64,000 nt of DNA from SAR202 cluster bacterium (GCA_016872385.1 VGZV01000001.1:22114-86113); one strand, 5' to 3'. Counted from the first letter of the stretch, positions 2,922-60,215 are shown. Numbers and translations: made by a program. The notes: generated by a model from the sequence alone, not told the origin.

Positions 2922-3061
2922 GCCCGTTACCGCACACTGGGTAGGTTGGACAGCGGCGGTTGGTCTCGGTATAATTTGCCATCCCCTTCAATATTCAGTC
3001 ACGAAACCGCCGGGCATTCCATAATCGCCATGCACGTAACTCGTACTTAAGGGGGCAAGAT

Positions 3062-3613
3062 ATGCCAGCCAAAGTTCTCGGCCTCGGTCATGTAGGGTTT
3101 TACGTAAAAGACCTGGAACTGATGAAGGACTTCTACGCGAATTTCATGGGCATGACTCTGACCAAGGTGGGTCCGCTGGGAGCCTTTTTCAGCGCCGATC
3201 CAGAGGCGTGCGACCACGAGATTGCCCTGATTAACGGGCGGCCCTCTCTTGACGACCCCCACTGGATTCAGCAGATCTCCATGCGGGTCGCGTCACTGAA
3301 TGATCTTCGCGACTTCAAGCGGCGCATTATTCAAAAGGGATACCAGCTGGACCGCATTGTATCCCATGCCAGCGCCATCGGCTGTTACTTCAGAGACCCG
3401 GAAGGCAACCCGACTGAAGTGTTCTGGCTAACCGGTATTACGTCTTGGGCCCAAATTGGGGTGCCTATTGACATAGACCAGCCGGATGAAAAGGTCATGG
3501 CGGACGTGCGCAGGTCTTATGAGGTTGTCAGGAACGTGGCAATGGGTCAAGTGCCCAGTCCGGAAACGCTAAAGGCCATTCGAGAGGCAACGGCAGTTGC
3601 CGCAGGCCGTTAA
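3062..3613 (+). CDS. VOC family protein (glyoxalase / extradiol dioxygenase fold)
   Basis: LGLGHVGFYVKDLELMKDFYANFMGMTL...DHEIALI is a VOC motif pattern. An SD-like GGGGG precedes the ATG. Confidence 0.8.
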   Translation: MPAKVLGLGHVGFYVKDLELMKDFYANFMGMTLTKVGPLGAFFSADPEACDHEIALINGRPSLDDPHWIQQISMRVASLNDLRDFKRRIIQKGYQLDRIVSHASAIGCYFRDPEGNPTEVFWLTGITSWAQIGVPIDIDQPDEKVMADVRRSYEVVRNVAMGQVPSPETLKAIREATAVAAGR

Positions 3614-5168: not shown

Positions 5169-5246
5169 CTCTACCTGTGGGCAAGGAATCTTAACGCAGA
5201 GTCTTGTAGACCGGCGCCGCTGATGCGGGGCCAAGGCCATAAAACA

Positions 5247-28748: not shown

Positions 28749-29616
28749 GCCTTTTCAATACCAGTTCTTTGTCCGTGGCCTGGCGGCGGCGACCCTGGTG
28801 GGCGGGCTGTGCGGCCTCATCGGCGTATACATCGTCCTGCGCCGCATGGCCTACATAGGGCATGGGCTGTCCCACTCGGTGTTTGGCGGCGCAGTGGTCA
28901 GCTACGTCATGTCCTTCAATTTTTTTGTGGGAGCCAGCCTGTGGGGCTTCCTCTCCGCCATTCTCATCACCCTCACCACCAGAAAACATAAGATTGGCTC
29001 CGATGCGGCCATTGGCATTATCACCACTGCCAGCTTTGCCTTGGGCATTGCCCTGATTAGCCGGTACAAGACCTTCACACGCAGCTTCGATGCAGCCTTG
29101 TTCGGCAACATCCTGGGAGTCACGCAGGGCGACTTGCTGGCCATTGTGGTGGTGGCGGCGGCCACCGCCATAATCCTGTTCTCTGGCTACAAACTCTTCT
29201 TGTTTGCCACCTTTGAACCGGAAGTCTCCCGCTTTTACGGCGTGCCCACGGGCTGGGTTGACACCCTGTTTTCCTTGGTGCTAGCCGCCACCATTGTGGT
29301 GTCCATGCAAATACTGGGCGTCACCCTCATCGCCGCCGCCATCGTCATACCGCCCATAGTTGCCCGGCTGCTCACCGACAGCTTCAAGACCATGATCCTG
29401 CTCTCCACTGCCGTGGGAGCTTTTTGCGGGCTGGCCGGGGTCTACATCAGCTACTATGTGGACGTGTCCTCCGGGGCCAGCGTGGTGCTGTTTTCCGCTC
29501 TGGTCTTTGTGGCGGTGCTGGCCTACTCCAACCTCAAGACCCGGCTAGCCCTAGCCGCTGGCGCAGGCGGCAGGGCGGGGCACCATCACGCCGGAGACAC
29601 CAGTCCCTTCCACTAG
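28741..29616 (+). CDS. Metal ABC transporter permease (ZnuB-type, ABC-3 family)
   Basis: 291 aa, polytopic. Overlaps the ATPase gene by 8 nt. Confidence 0.85.
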   Translation: MLEPFQYQFFVRGLAAATLVGGLCGLIGVYIVLRRMAYIGHGLSHSVFGGAVVSYVMSFNFFVGASLWGFLSAILITLTTRKHKIGSDAAIGIITTASFALGIALISRYKTFTRSFDAALFGNILGVTQGDLLAIVVVAAATAIILFSGYKLFLFATFEPEVSRFYGVPTGWVDTLFSLVLAATIVVSMQILGVTLIAAAIVIPPIVARLLTDSFKTMILLSTAVGAFCGLAGVYISYYVDVSSGASVVLFSALVFVAVLAYSNLKTRLALAAGAGGRAGHHHAGDTSPFH

Positions 29617-29785
29617 CCCCAAGGTGGGCTGATCCTTCTGGGACTTCCCTTTCTGAATTCAGGCCGGGATCCGGCTAGTTGTTCACCTGCCCCCGCGCCT
29701 GGGCGCCGGCTTTTGCCGGTGCGGCGTAAGCCTTCCTAATGCTCGCCACGGCAAGCTGGGCCATTGCCCTTTAGTGCCCATCCTA

Positions 29786-29872
29786 AAAACTCACCGCTGA
29801 GTACGCGGAGACCGCTGAGATAAAAGGAATCCAATACAAACTCTCTGCTTTCTTTGCGCTCTCTGCGGTTAT
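29786..29872. repeat. E-type repeat (AAAAACTCACCGCTGAGTACGCGGAGACCGCTGAG...CTCTCTGCGGTTAT)
   Basis: Reverse complement of the copy at 58529-58617. Related copy at 54376-54459. Confidence 0.8.
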
Positions 29873-29944
29873 TGGATAGGCGCTTATAGCTTTGCAGGAT
29901 GCTCCTGAGCACATACCCACCTTGCTGCCTTGGTTTACAAATAA

Positions 29945-30014
29945 GTAACAAGTTTTTAACAACGACGTTACACTCCAGAAATGTTCTGGAAATACCTGCG
30001 TTACATACTTTAAC
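29945..30014 (+). promoter_or_regulatory. Array of 11-nt phased pentamers (GTAAC-n6-TTAAC-n6-GTTAC-n6-GAAAT-n6-GAAAT-n6-GTTAC) with a central 17-bp palindrome; candidate nitrogen-regulator operator
   Basis: Pentamers start at 29945, 29956, 29967, 29978, 29989 and 30000. The palindrome TCCAGAA-ATG-TTCTGGA spans 29974-29990. The AT-rich segment lies 80-150 nt upstream of the PII-like gene. Confidence 0.4.
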
Positions 30015-30091
30015 TTGCCAACAAGTTCTGTTGGCGTCCACTTAACTTCATAATTTAGGATGATTACGTATTAGTAACCGGCGATAATGAG

Positions 30092-30409
30092 GTGGATGCA
30101 GTGAAGGAAGTCATTGCGATAGTCCGTCCGGAGCGGCGAGAGGCCACACTAAACGCCATGCGCAGCGTCGGCCTTGCAGAATTGCTCCATGTCCGTGTCA
30201 TGGGCCGCGGACGCCAACAGGGCCTTCAGTACCTGCGCCGCGCCCAGGGTGAGCAGGAGGCAGGCATGGCCTTCCTTTCCAAGCGCCTCATGTCCTGGAT
30301 GGTGCCCGATGACCAGGTGGAGCAAACAGTGCGTACCCTGCTGCGAATAAATCAGTCCGGCAACCACGGCGATGGCAAGATTTTTGTCTGCCCGGTGGAA
30401 GAAGCCTGA
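30092..30409 (+). CDS. P-II-like nitrogen regulatory protein with extended T-loop and no C-terminal tail
   Basis: KEVIAIVRPER...VMGRGRQQG...GDGKIFVCPVEEA. The start is GTG 30092 or GTG 30101 (a GAGGTGG SD favours 30101). Confidence 0.8.
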   Translation: MDAVKEVIAIVRPERREATLNAMRSVGLAELLHVRVMGRGRQQGLQYLRRAQGEQEAGMAFLSKRLMSWMVPDDQVEQTVRTLLRINQSGNHGDGKIFVCPVEEA

Positions 30410-30455: not shown

Positions 30456-31106
30456 GTGGCCAAGCGCGAAGGCGTCAACTACCCCAAGTTTAAGGATCAG
30501 TTTGCGGTGATGGACTTTGAGGCGGAGCCGTTGCCCGTGCTGTCGCTGTTCCCAATGCCGCCGGCCAGCTATTTGGAAGACTGGCAGTTGACTTTCACCG
30601 ACGTCAACAGCCAGCGGCGCGTGGTCACCGGTGCCCAACTCTTGAGTCTGCCCCGGGTGCATGGGCGCGTCCCCCTGGTATGCCAGATTTTTAACTGGTC
30701 TGAGGAGCCGGAGGTGGAGGGGGTGCGCCTGGTGGATGTGCTGGATGCCATCGGTGTAGACGCCCCGGATAGCGGCTATTTTGCCTTTCACTCCGCTGAC
30801 GGCCTCTATTTTGAAGGGCTTCCCCGCACTATGGCCCGCGACCCCCGGGTGCTGCTGGTCTTTGGGCTGGCGGGCCGCCCGCTGCCCCGGGAGTACGGCG
30901 GCCCGGTGCGCTCGCTGGTGCCCTTCCTGCAAGGCTACAAGAGTGTCAAGTGGGTGCATCTGGTGCGGGCTTACCGCAAGGACCCGGTGGGCATCAAACG
31001 GCTGCTGGGCCAGAGCCGCACCGCAGTGCTGGGTTCAGTGGGCCAGGAATTGGCTGGCGTGGTAGTGGGCCGCATGGGCGACGGCGACAGCACCCTGGAG
31101 GTATGA
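30456..31106 (+). CDS. Small cytoplasmic molybdopterin-binding oxidoreductase, sulfite-oxidase/YedY fold
   Basis: 216 aa with no signal peptide. WQLTFTDVNSQRRVVTGAQLLSLPRVHGRVPLVCQIFNWSEEPEVEGVRLVDVL and GRPLPREYGGPVRSLVPFLQGYKSVKWV match the Oxidored_molyb pattern, including the Cys ligand context. Confidence 0.7.
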   Translation: MAKREGVNYPKFKDQFAVMDFEAEPLPVLSLFPMPPASYLEDWQLTFTDVNSQRRVVTGAQLLSLPRVHGRVPLVCQIFNWSEEPEVEGVRLVDVLDAIGVDAPDSGYFAFHSADGLYFEGLPRTMARDPRVLLVFGLAGRPLPREYGGPVRSLVPFLQGYKSVKWVHLVRAYRKDPVGIKRLLGQSRTAVLGSVGQELAGVVVGRMGDGDSTLEV

Positions 31107-32353
31107 ACGTGGGGCACCGTCCAACGCTTATAGCCTCTTTCCTGCATTTTGACGTCAGTTTCATGCTCTGGGTGCTGCTGGGCGCACTGGGCGTGTATAT
31201 TGCCGAGAGCTTGGGACTTACGTCGGCGCAGAAGGGCCTCATGGTGGCGGTGCCCATCCTCAGCGGGGCGCTGCTGCGAATACCTCTGGGATTGCTTAGT
31301 GACCGCTTTGGTGGAAGGCGCATTGGCGCCGGATTGCTGGTCTTCCTGTTTTTGCCTTTGACCCTGGGCTGGCGGATGGGCGACAGTCTTCCGGCGCTGC
31401 TGGGCATTGGCCTTATGCTGGGGGCGGCAGGCGCGTCCTTTGCCGTGGCATTGCCCCTGGCCAGCCGGTGGTATCCCAAGGAGCGGCAGGGCCTGGTCAT
31501 GGGAATAGCCGCCGCGGGCAACAGCGGCACGGTCATCGCTAACTTGCTGGCGCCGCGGCTGGCTGCTTTAGTTGGATGGCACAACGTGCTGGCGCTGGCC
31601 ATGCTGCCCCTGGCGGTGGTCTTGCTGGCCTTCGTGCTTATGGCCAAGGAACAACAGCAAGTTGCATCCCAAAGGTGCCCTGCCCTTGCTGCTGGCGGCC
31701 CAAAGTTCTTGGCCCTGAAACAAGCGGACCTCTGGTGGTTCTGCCTGTTCTACAGCGTCACCTTCGGAGGCTACGTAGGGCTGAGCAGTTTCCTGCCCAT
31801 TTTCCTTAGAGACCAGTACCACGTTGCGCCAGTGACCGCTGGTTACCTGACTGCCGCTGCTGCGGTAGTAGGCAGCGGCCTGCGCCCGGCGGGCGGCTAT
31901 CTGTCCGACAAATTTGGCGGCGTGGCCATGCTCACCGCCCTGCTGCTGGGCATCAGCCTGGTGTATGTGCTAGCCAGCCGCCTGCCCGCCCTGGGCATCA
32001 TGATGGTTCTGATCATCGCCGGGATGGCCTGCCTGGGCATGGGCAACGGCGCAGTTTTCCAGTTGGTGCCTCAGCGGTTCTCTGGGGAAATTGGCCTGGC
32101 CACTGGAATTATCGGGGCCTTTGGCGGCTTGGGCGGTTTCTTCCTTCCCAATTTGCTGGGGAATGCCAGGGAAGTTAGCGGCTCCTTTGGGCCGGGTTTG
32201 CTGGTGCTGGCGGGGGCTGCCTTGACCGCACTGGTGGCGTTGCGAGTCCTGGTGCTGGTGGAAAACGGCTGGCGCCGGGCCTGGGCGCAGCCTACCCCGG
32301 CGCCTGAAGCAGTGCCGGGGAGAGTCATTATGGTCCCTTACCTGCAACCCTAG
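31103..32353 (+). CDS. narK: Nitrate/nitrite MFS porter (NNP family, NarK/NasA-type)
   Basis: 12-TM profile. NNP signatures IAAAGNSGT and GIIGAFGGLGGFFLP. ATG 31103 overlaps the upstream stop (ATGA). Confidence 0.85.
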   Translation: MNVGHRPTLIASFLHFDVSFMLWVLLGALGVYIAESLGLTSAQKGLMVAVPILSGALLRIPLGLLSDRFGGRRIGAGLLVFLFLPLTLGWRMGDSLPALLGIGLMLGAAGASFAVALPLASRWYPKERQGLVMGIAAAGNSGTVIANLLAPRLAALVGWHNVLALAMLPLAVVLLAFVLMAKEQQQVASQRCPALAAGGPKFLALKQADLWWFCLFYSVTFGGYVGLSSFLPIFLRDQYHVAPVTAGYLTAAAAVVGSGLRPAGGYLSDKFGGVAMLTALLLGISLVYVLASRLPALGIMMVLIIAGMACLGMGNGAVFQLVPQRFSGEIGLATGIIGAFGGLGGFFLPNLLGNAREVSGSFGPGLLVLAGAALTALVALRVLVLVENGWRRAWAQPTPAPEAVPGRVIMVPYLQP

Positions 32354-32388: not shown

Positions 32389-33945
32389 ATGAAACCCGGC
32401 AACAACCCCATGGAAAAAATCAAGGCTGAGAAAGATGGCCTGGACATTCTCCAGGAGATTGACGAACTGGCCGCCAAACACGGCGGCTGGGAGACCCTGG
32501 ATCCCGGCGACCGGGAGCGCCTCAAATGGATTGGCACTTTCTTCCGCAAACCCACCCCTGGGCTGTTCATGATGCGGATACGCATCACCAACGGCCAGGC
32601 TACCAGCGCCCAGTTGCGCGCTTTGGCGGACATTGCCCAGCGGTTGGGCAACGGGGTGCTGGACTTGACTACCCGCCAGCAGGCGCAGCTCCGCGCGGTC
32701 AAAATCCAGGATGTGCCTCAAATCATTCAGGCGCTGCAAGGGGTGGATCTGACCTCCTTGCAGACCGGCCTGGATAACATCCGCAACATTAGCTGCTGTC
32801 CGCTTTCCGGCCTCACTGCCAACGAGTTGCTGGACGCTTCGCCCGTGGGCGTTGAATACACGCGGATGTTTCTGAACAACAAGGAGTTCTCCAACCTGCC
32901 CCGCAAGTTCAACGTGACCATTACCGGGTGCCTGGAAAACTGCACCCATGCCGAGACCCAGGACCTGGGTATGACGCCGGCCGTGCGCACCTCCGACGGC
33001 CAGCCCGGTTTCAACGTGGTGGCGGGGGGCAAAATGGGTTCCGGCGGTATGACCGTAGCCCAACCCCTGGACATTTTTGTCACGCCCCAAAACGCGGCAC
33101 GGCTGGCGGCCCAGGTCACTCTGCTGTTCCGGGACGAAGGCGTGCGGGAGCAACGAAACAAGGTGCGGCTGGCCTTTCTCATCCAGGCCTGGGGTGTGGA
33201 CAAGTTCCGGGCAGCCCTGGAGGACCGCTGGGGGCTTCCCCTGGAGCGGGCCGGCCGGGATGTGCGCCATGCTGTTCACACGGACCACCTGGGCGTGCAG
33301 CGGCAGAAGCAGCCTGGCATGTATTCCGTGGGCCTGTGTGTGCCCACGGGCCGCATAACCAGCGAACGGATGCAGGAGTTGGCTCTTCTGGCCGATAGAT
33401 ACGGCAGCGGCCACGTACGTTTGACCAACGCCCAGAACGCTATTCTGGTCAACGTGCCCCAGCATCGCCTGACCGCCCTGCTGTCCGAGCCGCTGCTGCG
33501 CGAGTTGTCGCCGGTGCCTTCCGCCTTCCATCGTGGGCTGGTTACCTGCACCGGCGTGGATTACTGCAACCTGGCCTTGATTGAGACTAAGGGCACTGGC
33601 CTGGCCTTGTCCAACGCCCTGGCCCGGCGGTTTCCCGGTGCATCCAACCTTACCATGCACTGGTCGGGGTGTCCTGCCGGATGCGGCAACCATCAAGCGG
33701 CGGATGTGGGGTTCCAGGGGGCCAAGGCGCGGGTCAACGGCCAGGTGGTGGATGCAGTAAGCATATTTGTGGGCGGCCGCACCGGCACCGAGCCCAAGCC
33801 TGGCGAAAAAATCATGGAACTGATACCCGTAGATATGCTGGAAGAGGTTGTGCCCGTCGTTCTGCGGCACCTGGAGGTGCTGAAAAAGGTTACCCGGGAT
33901 TCCGAGGCTGAGTCCCGTGTTTTGATGGTCCCGGTGCTGGTTTAA
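32389..33945 (+). CDS. nirA: Ferredoxin-dependent nitrite/sulfite reductase (siroheme, 4Fe-4S)
   Basis: 518 aa. Cluster-binding Cys motifs TCTGVDYC and SGCPAGCGNH, in a two-half NIR_SIR architecture. Confidence 0.85.
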   Translation: MKPGNNPMEKIKAEKDGLDILQEIDELAAKHGGWETLDPGDRERLKWIGTFFRKPTPGLFMMRIRITNGQATSAQLRALADIAQRLGNGVLDLTTRQQAQLRAVKIQDVPQIIQALQGVDLTSLQTGLDNIRNISCCPLSGLTANELLDASPVGVEYTRMFLNNKEFSNLPRKFNVTITGCLENCTHAETQDLGMTPAVRTSDGQPGFNVVAGGKMGSGGMTVAQPLDIFVTPQNAARLAAQVTLLFRDEGVREQRNKVRLAFLIQAWGVDKFRAALEDRWGLPLERAGRDVRHAVHTDHLGVQRQKQPGMYSVGLCVPTGRITSERMQELALLADRYGSGHVRLTNAQNAILVNVPQHRLTALLSEPLLRELSPVPSAFHRGLVTCTGVDYCNLALIETKGTGLALSNALARRFPGASNLTMHWSGCPAGCGNHQAADVGFQGAKARVNGQVVDAVSIFVGGRTGTEPKPGEKIMELIPVDMLEEVVPVVLRHLEVLKKVTRDSEAESRVLMVPVLV

Positions 33946-34015: not shown

Positions 34016-34333
34016 ATGAAGATGATACGTGCGGTGGTCCGCCCGGAAAAAGAGGAAGCCGTAGGTGCAGCCCTGGCCAAGGCTGGGTTCCCGGCGCTTA
34101 CCAAATGGGATGTGGTGGGGCGGGGCAAGCAACAGGGCATTCAAGTGGGCAGCCACATTTATGATGAGCTGGCCAAGTCCCTGGTGCTAATAGTGGTCAA
34201 TGATGACCAGGTGGAAAAGGCAGCCAAGGTGATTCATGATGCAGCCTTCTCCAGATATCCGGGCGACGGCAAAATCTTCGTCACGCCGGTGGATACCGCT
34301 TATACCATCCGCACTGGCAAGTCAGAGCTTTAG
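34016..34333 (+). CDS. P-II-like nitrogen regulatory protein (short non-canonical T-loop)
   Basis: MKMIRAVVRPEKEE...VVGRGKQQGIQVGSHIYDE...GDGKIFVTPVDTAYTIRTG. An AAGGAGG SD precedes ATG 34016. Confidence 0.85.
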   Translation: MKMIRAVVRPEKEEAVGAALAKAGFPALTKWDVVGRGKQQGIQVGSHIYDELAKSLVLIVVNDDQVEKAAKVIHDAAFSRYPGDGKIFVTPVDTAYTIRTGKSEL

Positions 34334-55314: not shown

Positions 55315-57033
55315 CTACACCAGGAAGAATAACTGGGCCAGGCTCAGGCGCTCCGCCGGGGGCACGGTAGCCAACTCGCCGTCTACCCGCACCTGGTAGG
55401 TGTCCGGGTTTACCTCGATGTGGGGCGTGCGGTCGTTGCGCACCATCTGGCGCTTGGTGATGGTGCGGCAGCCCAGCACCGGCGCCACCATCCGCCGCAG
55501 CCCCAGCTGCTGGTGCACCCCCAGCTCGTAGGCGCGGCGGGAGACGAAGGTGACGCAGGTGCGGGCCAGGGCTGACCCCAGCGCCCCGTACATGGGCCGG
55601 TAAAACTGCGGCTCGGCGGTGGGGATGGAGCCGTTGGGGTCGCCCATCAGCGCCCAGGCCACCATGCCACCTTTGATAATCATCTTGGGCTTGGCCCCAA
55701 AAGTGCCCACCGGCCACAGCACAATATCCGCCAGCTTGCCCGGCGTCAAAGACCCCACCAGGTGGCTGATGCCGTGGGTGATGGCTGGATTGATGGTCAA
55801 CTTGGCCAGGTAGCGCAGCACCCGGAAGTTGTCATGCTCCGCAGCGTCCTCCGGCAGCTTCCCTTTCATCTGCTTCATCTTGTCGGCAGTCTGGAACAGG
55901 CGGGTAAAGTTCTCGCCCACCCGGCCCATGGCTTGGGAGTCGGAGGAGTACATACTTATGACGCCCAGGTCGTGGAGCACATCTTCCGCGGCCATGGTCT
56001 CCGGGCGGATACGGCTCTCGGCGAAGGCCACGTCCTCGGCCACGCCGGGGTTCAGGTGGTGGCACACCATCAGCATGTCCATGTGCTCGGCCAGGGTGTT
56101 GACCGTGTAGGGCCTTGTAGGGTTGGTGGAGGAGGGCAGCACGTTCAGGTGGGCAGAGATGCGGATGATGTCCGGGGCATGGCCGCCGCCCGCACCCTCG
56201 GTGTGGTAGGTGTGGATGGTGCGGCCCGCGATGGCGGCGATGGTGTCCTCCACGAACCCAGCCTCGTTCAGGGTGTCGGTATGGATGGCCACCTGCACGT
56301 CGTGGGCGTCAGCCGCCCGCAGGCAGGCGTCAATGGCGGCGGGGGTGGTGCCCCAGTCCTCATGGAGCTTCAACCCGCAGGCCCCGGCCTCGATCTGCTC
56401 CTCCAGCGGGGAAAGTTCGCTGGCGTTGCCTTTGCCCAGCAGGCCCCAGTTGATGGGCAGCGCCTCCGCCGCCTCCAGCATCCGGTGGATGTGCCACGGG
56501 CCGGGGGTGCAGGTGGTGGCGCGGGTGCCGTCGGCGGGGCCGGTGCCGCCGCCAATGTGGGTGGTGATGCCGTTGGACAGGGCGTGGTACACCTGCTGGG
56601 GCGCAATCATGTGGATGTGGGTGTCTATGCCGCCAGGAGTGGCGATAAGGTGTTCCCCGGCGATGACTTCCGTGCCCGCGCCCACCACCAGGCTGGGGTC
56701 CACTCCGTCCATGACGCCGGGGTTGCCCGCCTTGCCGATGCCAACGATGCGGCCATCCTTGACCCCCAGGTCGGCCTTGATGATGCCCAGCAGGGGGTCC
56801 ATGACGATGACATTGGTAATCACCAGGTCCAGAGCGCCGTTGCGGTTGGTGGCGTTGGGGGACTGGCCCATGCCATCCCTGGCGGTCTTGCCGCCGCCAA
56901 AGACCAGCTCGTCGCCGGGGGTAATCAGGTCCCGCTCCACCTGGCAGATGAGGGATGTATCGGCCAGCCGGAACCGGTCCCCGGCGGTGGGGCCATAAAG
57001 CTCAGCGTAGTGGCGGCGGCTAATGCGGGCCAT
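55315..57033 (-). CDS. ureC: Urease alpha subunit
   Basis: 572 aa. [41 protein letters not shown] and other urease active-site motifs. Confidence 0.97.
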
Positions 57034-58528: not shown

Positions 58529-58617
58529 AATAACCGCAGAGAGGGTAAAGAACGCAGAGAGTTTGTATTGGATTTCTTTTAACTCGGCGTTCTCCGCGTA
58601 CTTGGCGGTAAGTTTTT
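58529..58617. repeat. E-type repeat between glnA and ureA
   Basis: AATAACCGCAGAGAGGGTAAAGAACGCAGAGAGTTTGTATTGGATT...CTCGGCGTTCTCCGCGTACTTGGCGGTAAGTTTTT. Reverse complement of 29786-29872. Confidence 0.8.
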
Positions 58618-58650
58618 AGGATAGGCACTTAGGGGGTGGGGGTAATCCTC

Positions 58651-60035: not shown

Positions 60036-60215
60036 TTCAATTAGGAGAACGTCATTCCGGCGGAAGCCGGAATCCAATAGAATGCATCAACCACTTTTGT
60101 ATCAGGACACCGCCGAAAGCCAGTGTGATGAGCCGAGTTCTTAAGCAAATTGATTCACTACACTTATTTCAAGAACCTTACTTTCTCTGGGCACCGGCCT
60201 TCGCCGGTGCGACGG
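60036..60215. repeat. A-type element (inverted, 60036-60161) plus a solo A-type hairpin (60187-60215)
   Basis: GTCATTCCGGCGGAAGCCGGAATCC...GGACACCGCCGAAAGCCAGTGTGA...CTTAAGCAAATTGATTCACTAC, then GGCACCGGCCTTCGCCGGTGCGAC. Confidence 0.75.

Follow-up and report, generated by a model that had tools for sequence, protein, structure and literature searches.

GlnR, the OmpR-type nitrogen regulator, has so far been described in Actinobacteria, and the literature consulted here treats the system as actinobacterial. The published GlnR box is gTnAc-n6-GaAAc, there are usually four sites in two 22-bp boxes, and promoters with one to three boxes are known (PMC10235972). In the GlnR complex four protomers are lined up head-to-tail on the sites a1-b1-a2-b2, with GTAAC in the co-crystal, and the protomer nearest the promoter occupies b2, on the downstream side of a weak -35, and makes contact with both the beta flap and sigma region 4 (PMC10235972). 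The box of Mycobacterium smegmatis is t/gTAAC-n6-Gc/aAAC, and mycobacterial glnR is autoregulated (PMC10704036). Here we describe an array of units of this kind in a 64,000-nt stretch of DNA from a SAR202 cluster bacterium (GCA_016872385.1, VGZV01000001.1:22114-86113), which we call the window and whose positions are counted from its first nucleotide. The array is found on the + strand at 29934-29993, in front of an operon for a P-II-like protein, a molybdenum (Mo) enzyme, a NarK-like transporter, the nitrite reductase NirA and a canonical P-II protein. To judge from its sequence and that of its relatives, it appears to be a conserved row of sites for a GlnR-like regulator at a nitrite/nitrate-assimilation operon of a freshwater Dehalococcoidia bacterium, with binding as a prediction, and we consider it quite likely that it is the cis-element of a GlnR-type, activator-dependent promoter. 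This suggests that GlnR-type control is at work in a second major phylum as well. A full-text literature search gave no relevant paper that links an OmpR-type GlnR with Chloroflexi, Chloroflexota or Dehalococcoidia, the coverage of the search being incomplete and the result absence of evidence only, and we regard the element as a putative GlnR-box promoter from a phylum for which no such system is on record.

A first-pass annotation of the window had listed six pentamers, GTAAC 29945, TTAAC 29956, GTTAC 29967, GAAAT 29978, GAAAT 29989 and GTTAC 30000, and all of them are in the sequence, each exactly 11 nt from the next. Its comparison with GlnR boxes in half-site form and spacing is also supported, the units and the 11-nt phase being equal to those published. 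The extent it gave, 29945-30014, is right in the core and wrong at the ends, since the geometry of the relatives shifts the array by one unit to 29934-29993. At the 5' end there is one more unit in phase, TTTAC 29934, and the closest relative, L004, has TTCAC there. At the 3' end GTTAC 30000-30004 (+ strand, 6.9 bits) is a seventh in-phase pentamer which probably stands outside the conserved array; it overlaps the predicted -10 hexamer and is not conserved in L004, where the sequence is TTCCC, and for these reasons the array was ended at 29993. TTAAC 30010 comes 10 nt past GTTAC 30000 and is hence out of the 11-nt phase. The units of the window array are TTTAC, GTAAC, TTAAC, GTTAC, GAAAT and GAAAT, with 3.0, 8.6, 7.8, 6.9, 4.9 and 6.4 bits, and unit for unit those of L004 are TTCAC, GTAAT, TTAAC, GTTAC, GCAAT and GAAAC, with nothing that matches GTTAC 30000.

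The array resembles the sites of actinobacterial GlnR (Streptomyces, Mycobacterium, Amycolatopsis, Saccharopolyspora) in its pentamer consensus, its 6-nt spacers and the head-to-tail tandem order, the known promoters having two to three boxes each. Unlike GlnR boxes, the arrays are often longer, with six units in the window and at least eight in many relatives, and there is no strict alternation of a and b sites. The pattern KWWAY repeated five times at 11-nt spacing has its sole site in the 64-kb window here, both strands considered (three overlapping matches), and 100 dinucleotide shuffles of the window gave 0.00 matches. We also built a weight matrix from 266 units in 43 distinct arrays, taken from other genomes only, with the window left out; the units were initially chosen by a loose pentamer rule, so that the matrix partly mirrors that rule. 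Scored over four units, the array reached 28.1 bits, the next real site in the window 8.5 bits and 20 local shuffles at most 12.7 bits. The matrix consensus is c-G-(T/A/C)-A-A-(C/T), in which G1, A3, A4 and C/T5 are kept, and the spacers are variable and carry no information.

The first-pass annotation had placed the array upstream of a nitrate-assimilation cluster, and this agrees with the conservation of the array at the orthologous promoter across the Dehalococcoidia. The gene order P-II-like protein, Mo enzyme, (transporter), NirA and P-II is kept in 49 Dehalococcoidia loci, and in nearly all of them the 300 nt 5' of the first gene hold an array of four, six or eight units in exact 11-nt phase. 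An array of at least 20 bits is found on the + strand of the orthologous promoter in 44 of the 49 loci, and four more have a weaker array of six units. The eight units of L024 are TTAAC-GCAAC-GAAAA-GTAAC-GTAAC-GAAAC-GCAAT-GAAAC. In 30 loci with the Mo gene from Nitrospirota, Thaumarchaeota and other groups outside the Chloroflexota, the sole match of at least 13 bits was in L061, 13.1 bits and not at a promoter. Three further matrix matches were discarded: those in L034 and L039 are false positives, 33-nt coding tandem repeats, and the one at L086 2964-3003 (20.6 bits) lies inside a gene and is probably due to chance. The sequence of the window is that of a metagenome contig (ENA ERZ27247963) and occurs in a JGI lake sample too. 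When one genome per species was searched with the Mo enzyme, the closest relatives were metagenome-assembled genomes (MAGs) of Dehalococcoidia, SAR202 and Chloroflexota, from 89% down to 57% identity, and more distant matches came from Nitrospirota and Thaumarchaeota. Because of these closest relatives we take the host to be a member of the Chloroflexota and not an actinobacterium, and in this the host and its relatives, which are Dehalococcoidia, differ from the organisms of the actinobacterial GlnR.

The promoters themselves have a strict geometry. When 45 distinct orthologous promoters, the window included, were aligned on their last unit, which is most commonly GAAACA, it was followed by exactly 10 nt and then by the hexamer YAnnnT, with T or C at alignment position +16 in 45 of 45, A at +17 in 45 of 45 and T at +21 in 44 of 45. 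This hexamer resembles a -10 box. For the window to fit the geometry, GAAAT 29989 has to be the last unit, and the predicted -10 hexamer is for that reason CATACT at 30004-30009 (+ strand), 10 nt after the last unit. The transcription start would then be near 30016, which would put the units at about -27, -38, -49, -60, -71 and -82 and the whole array at about -82 to -23. On this predicted numbering the last unit covers about -27 to -23, and a consensus -35 is absent. A scan for sigma-70 promoters and terminators over 29500-30200 gave no consensus promoter and no recognisable -35, which fits a promoter that depends on an activator. Given the predicted -10, the arrangement would match that of the activation complex of Mycobacterium tuberculosis GlnR, where b2 is downstream of the -35 (PMC10235972).

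The array of the operon is not the only one on this contig. The urtA promoter, about 1.6 kb beyond the end of the window (L084 7511-7583), has six units, GAAAC-GTAAC-TTAAC-TTAAC-GAAAC-GCAAT, with 33.1 bits, so that two nitrogen-acquisition operons of the organism share the element. To look further we scanned metagenomes with the pattern GTAAC-n6-GnAA-n7-GnAA-n7-GAAACA-n10-AnnnT, a scan that provides examples and not a census, part of its matches being simple tandem repeats or copies of one recurrent human-gut sequence. At least 13 contigs have an array directly 5' of amtB, and at least 3 have one directly 5' of glnA, usually as amtB-glnK-glnA. Many of the amtB-linked arrays among the matches listed have an adjacent, divergently transcribed gene for a GlnR-like protein, and the two contigs with a named source are from Chloroflexota. 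The targets are in this respect like those of the GlnR regulon, with amtB, glnA, nitrite/nitrate and urea genes and the regulator's own gene all having arrays in various Chloroflexota and metagenome contigs.

Two observations from these scans stand by themselves. The recurrent sequence, GTAACAGGATTGTAATGTATGTGAAACGGGTGTGAAACA, has 46% GC and occurs in L092, L097 and about 30 other human-gut contigs among the matches listed; it is found 31 nt 5' of the gene for a 428-aa secreted protein, and could be a genuine site in a different phylum or a chance match. In L018 there is an OmpR-like protein that consists of the winged helix only, has its own array and adjoins amtB (features at 2995-3363 and 3444-3483 on the - strand and 5171-5210 on the + strand). 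The same locus has a second array with proper -10 geometry about 400 nt 5' of the nir array. The small protein may be a truncated paralogue or a competitor.

A candidate for the regulator was observed beside the arrays of the relatives. An OmpR-family gene of 217-239 aa lies directly 5' of the array in L007, L011, L013, L016, L212 and L216-220. In the first four the product has about 225 aa, with an OmpR/PhoB winged helix at its C-terminal end, and in L216-220 the operon is exactly as in the window, with the regulator gene 5' of the array. All nine loci of GlnR-like genes examined (L007, L011, L013, L016, L088, L090, L212, L213 and L216) have an array of four units upstream of the gene, and in the six that were read out (L007, L011, L013, L088, L090 and L216) the regulator's own array is followed by 10 nt and YAnnnT. 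In one relative (L040 and L088) the gene for the regulator P0041 and the 8-unit nir array of L040 share a 3.30-Mb chromosome, with about 320 kb between them. Another lineage, represented by L213 and L214, has a GlnR-like gene with its own array directly 5' of a classical cluster of nasA, a nirB-like gene, nirA and narK.

Among solved structures the best matches of the regulator are the GlnR entries 8HIH, 8HIG and 8HML, with E values of 5e-31 to 1e-26, followed by RegX3 at 1e-19, and three regulators gave the identical top ranking, with best E values from 5e-31 to 8e-38. The entry 8HIH is the M. tuberculosis GlnR activation complex and 8HML the DNA-binding domain of S. erythraea GlnR on DNA (PMC10235972); 8HIG is not mentioned in that paper. 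The DNA-binding domain of the regulator alone scored 97-103 bits against GlnR as compared to 58-71 bits against the PhoB domain, and its identity with the corresponding domain of S. erythraea GlnR is 52%. The residues R186, V190, R193 and R194, which contact the bases of GTAAC in the GlnR co-crystal (PMC10235972), are all conserved, and of the DNA-contact residues 12 of 15 are kept in L011 and 15 of 15 in L138. The regulators next to the arrays are thus like GlnR both in their rank among solved structures and in their base-contact residues. No histidine kinase gene was seen beside the regulator genes in the loci inspected, which is consistent with an orphan regulator. In NCBIfam no curated cut-off was reached; the best model, PhoB, stayed well under its threshold. 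At E < 1e-20 the family comprises at least 1,847 members, and about a dozen of the matches listed have an organism name, all of them MAG proteins of Chloroflexota or Dehalococcoidia.

The units, the spacing, the orientation to the predicted -10 and the position are the same as in the known system, and this suggests a class-II-like activation by a homologue of GlnR. Several copies of an orphan OmpR/PhoB-family homologue of GlnR would line up on the DNA in head-to-tail order, each pentamer G(T/A/C)AA(C/T) taking up one winged-helix domain, at intervals of 11 bp or one helical turn. The promoter-proximal protomer would be placed at about -27 to -23, between the absent -35 and CATACT, and would recruit or stabilise the RNA polymerase. 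It is conceivable that the four promoter-proximal units form the core and that the upstream two are auxiliary, like a3-b3. Scarcity of fixed nitrogen would then turn on the operon from the P-II-like gene through the Mo enzyme, the NarK-like transporter and NirA to P-II, and the same regulator would drive the urtA promoter on the contig and, in the relatives, its own gene. We infer the binding, the sign of the activation and the nitrogen-limitation signal by analogy with GlnR.

Several observations weigh against a GlnR-type promoter. The upstream four units also match on the opposite strand, with 23.2 bits, which makes the orientation ambiguous. The window's glnA and ureA are classic GlnR targets, and no array precedes either gene, with best 4-unit scores of -2.1 and 0.0 bits; a regulon in which glnA and the ure genes have no sites is unlike that of GlnR. 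A matrix scan of the nitrogen promoters, an idea of the first-pass annotation, was accordingly positive for nir and urtA and negative for these two. The pair of TTAAC pentamers that had been pointed out upstream of glnA exists, 23-37 nt from the start codon and adjoining a repeat described below, and does not qualify as a GlnR-type site, the spacing being 10 nt and the region's best score the -2.1 bits already given. The GlnR-like gene itself is absent from the 64-kb window (tblastn) and from about 10 kb of flank at each end, so that the orphan OmpR-family homologue which the annotation had called for is present beside arrays in relatives and is not in the window or the approximately 20 kb around it. 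The regulators P0118, P0013, P0018, P0008 and P0011 were all traced to other organisms than that of the window. From the relatives we infer that the host genome encodes a GlnR-like regulator.

The proteins also give reasons for caution. The residues of the regulators' recognition helix (RTVDVHIRRLR) are presumably also those of E. coli PhoB, and if they are common to PhoB the contact residues alone do not prove a specificity for GTAAC. The receiver domain of the Dehalococcoidia regulators is degenerate; Pfam recognises Trans_reg_C only and no Response_reg, and the Asp of GlnR is Ser in L011. GlnR has a conserved, unphosphorylated Asp for dimerisation, and in this the Dehalococcoidia proteins, with the Asp replaced, are different. 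The receiver Asp is essential in M. smegmatis GlnR (PMC10704036), and its replacement means that dimerisation or control may differ in the Dehalococcoidia regulators. The amtB-linked regulators keep ...LVLVD... in the receiver.

The other explanation that survives best, and one we still regard as improbable, is that another OmpR-family paralogue binds the array, either a phosphate regulator of the PhoB/PhoP type or a small winged-helix protein like that of L018. Direct repeats of 11 bp beside a -10 box are typical of the whole OmpR family, and pho boxes, the sites of PhoB/PhoP, are direct repeats with an 11-bp period, which take the place of the -35 and stop about 10 bp short of the -10. The recognition helix presumably common to PhoB would fit such a regulator, as would the fact that the L018 protein carries its own array and adjoins amtB. 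Some units read TTCAC (L008, L010 and L015), which resembles the actinobacterial PhoP repeat GTTCACC, and GlnR and PhoP are reported to compete for the same promoters in Streptomyces (PMC3561978). Against this, the consensus of the units, GTAAC/GAAAC, is that of GlnR, and the pho-box repeats CTGTCAT and GTTCACC are both absent from 29900-30100. Pho boxes serve phosphate genes, and every target gene found here is a nitrogen gene (nir, urt, amtB-glnK-glnA). Furthermore, it is the GlnR-like gene that recurs beside the arrays and is preceded by one itself, and the DNA-binding domain of its product scores about 30-40 bits better against GlnR than against PhoB.

We find it very improbable that the functional element is a palindrome inside the array, as the site of a helix-turn-helix dimer of the CRP/NtcA, NsrR or Fur type, and that the pentamers are incidental. 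The first-pass annotation had seen a 17-bp palindrome at the centre, and it is there: TCCAGAAATGTTCTGGA at 29974-29990 is a perfect inverted repeat with 7-nt arms and a 3-nt loop, across units 5 and 6 and at -42 to -26, where repressors or class II activators bind. Its support as an element fell away in the closest relative L004, where the counterpart is TCCGGCAATGTCCTAGA; the arms are not complementary any more and every pentamer is still kept, and it is the pentamer array that is conserved throughout the class. NtcA of cyanobacteria and TnrA or the MerR-type GlnR of Bacillus are alike to the present system in their position at nir, nrt, urt, amt and glnA and in their nitrogen response. The sites of NtcA and TnrA are palindromes for dimers (GTAN8TAC and TGTNAN7TNACA), in contrast to the direct repeats of the window array. 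Neither of these motifs, nor GGAAN6TTCC of NrpR, nor TGGCAC-N5-TTGC of sigma-54/NtrC, has a match on either strand of 29900-30100, and an AmtR-like motif is likewise absent from this interval.

Least probable of all is that the AA-containing pentamers are curved, UP-element-like DNA or a chance AT-rich periodicity with no dedicated regulator, for although helically phased AA dinucleotides bend DNA and the array region is AT-rich as compared to a genome of 60% GC, G1 and C/T5 are conserved as much as the A's while the spacers vary, the shuffles gave 0 matches, the register to the -10 box is base-exact in 45 promoters, and the arrays co-occur with a specific regulator gene.

A GlnR-type promoter in this window may be one part of a larger system. 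We hold the chances to be about even that GlnR and boxes of the GTAAC-n6 type are not confined to Actinobacteria and form the master nitrogen regulon of the Chloroflexota, the abundant aquatic Dehalococcoidia and SAR202 included, which would comprise amtB-glnK-glnA, urea uptake, the regulator's own gene and the nitrite/nitrate operon around its undescribed Mo enzyme, with arrays of up to eight or more sites, and that the regulator of the Dehalococcoidia has lost the receiver Asp. This loss would imply that nitrogen status is sensed otherwise there, for instance via the P-II-like protein encoded first in the operon, and that protein could link nitrogen sensing to the regulator that has no Asp.

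Nitrogen control in the Chloroflexota is essentially uncharted. If the array is what we propose, array, 10 nt and YAnnnT together would be a rule for predicting nitrogen-regulated promoters and their starts in uncultured SAR202 and Dehalococcoidia, and a candidate regulator suitable for purification and testing would have been identified. It would also point to a greater age or mobility of the GlnR system than has been assumed. The small Mo enzyme would be marked as nitrogen-regulated, which would support a role in the assimilation of nitrate or nitrite.

The operon differs from those of the actinobacterial GlnR regulon in that it begins with a P-II-like gene and has a Mo enzyme of the sulfite-oxidase fold in place of NasA/NarB. 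Its first gene (30101-30409, + strand) encodes a divergent P-II-like protein of 102 aa (Pfam P-II, 1.2e-14; gene call in L001) and starts with GTG at 30101, with the ribosome-binding site AGGTGGA 5' of the start. The protein is about 40% identical to the canonical P-II protein at the end of the operon, and its gene comes first in the operon in 49 of 49 Dehalococcoidia loci. The second gene (30456-31106, + strand) encodes the Mo enzyme of 216 aa (Oxidored_molyb, Pfam PF00174, 8e-22; conserved synteny). It is followed on the + strand by an MFS transporter of 416 aa, NarK/NrtP-like, at 31103-32353 (Pfam MFS_1, gene call), the ferredoxin-type nitrite reductase NirA of 518 aa at 32389-33945 (Pfam NIR_SIR and NIR_SIR_ferr, gene call) and, as the last gene, the canonical P-II protein of 105 aa at 34016-34333 (Pfam P-II, 3e-25, gene call).

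There is no nitrate reductase of the NasA/NarB type in the operon, and the 216-aa Mo protein is encoded instead between the P-II-like gene and NarK/NirA. It is a candidate for the nitrate-reducing enzyme of the cluster. The Mo gene adjoins genes for NirA, NarK or P-II in about 49 Dehalococcoidia loci and also in loci of Nitrospirota and Thaumarchaeota. The protein may be an undescribed assimilatory reductase related to nitrate or nitrite, and a literature search on it found no paper.

The array lies within an intergenic region of 484 nt (29617-30100), and the zur-znuABC operon 5' of this region ends at 29616. Rfam and tRNA scans of the region gave no match, which speaks against a known riboswitch or leader RNA. 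A comparison of 11-mers common to the array promoter and the rest of the window yielded noise, and GTTCTKGAAATA in the glnA upstream region is at chance level. A repeat of 107 nt is present at 29767-29873 and, inverted and 88% identical, at 58529-58635. One copy is about 60 nt 5' of the array and the other 5' of ureA, and the array is not inside the repeat.

It was also possible to observe two families of short intergenic hairpin repeats in many copies, CTACTGGATTCCGGCTTCCGCCGGAATGACG and CGCTCATGGTTCGACAAGCTCACCACGAGCGGG, which resemble repetitive extragenic palindromes or miniature inverted-repeat transposable elements (REP/MITE-like). They are found at 2879, 12817, 17225, 43249, 57211, 57842, 58432 and 60036-60093, with one copy in the glnA leader, the REP-like repeat next to the TTAAC pair, and further at 1612, 1684, 7575, 12913, 21681, 25218 and 61962. 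Finally, there is an Rfam match to 5_ureB_sRNA with 98.8 bits at 56583-56884 on the + strand, antisense to the urease genes of the minus strand.

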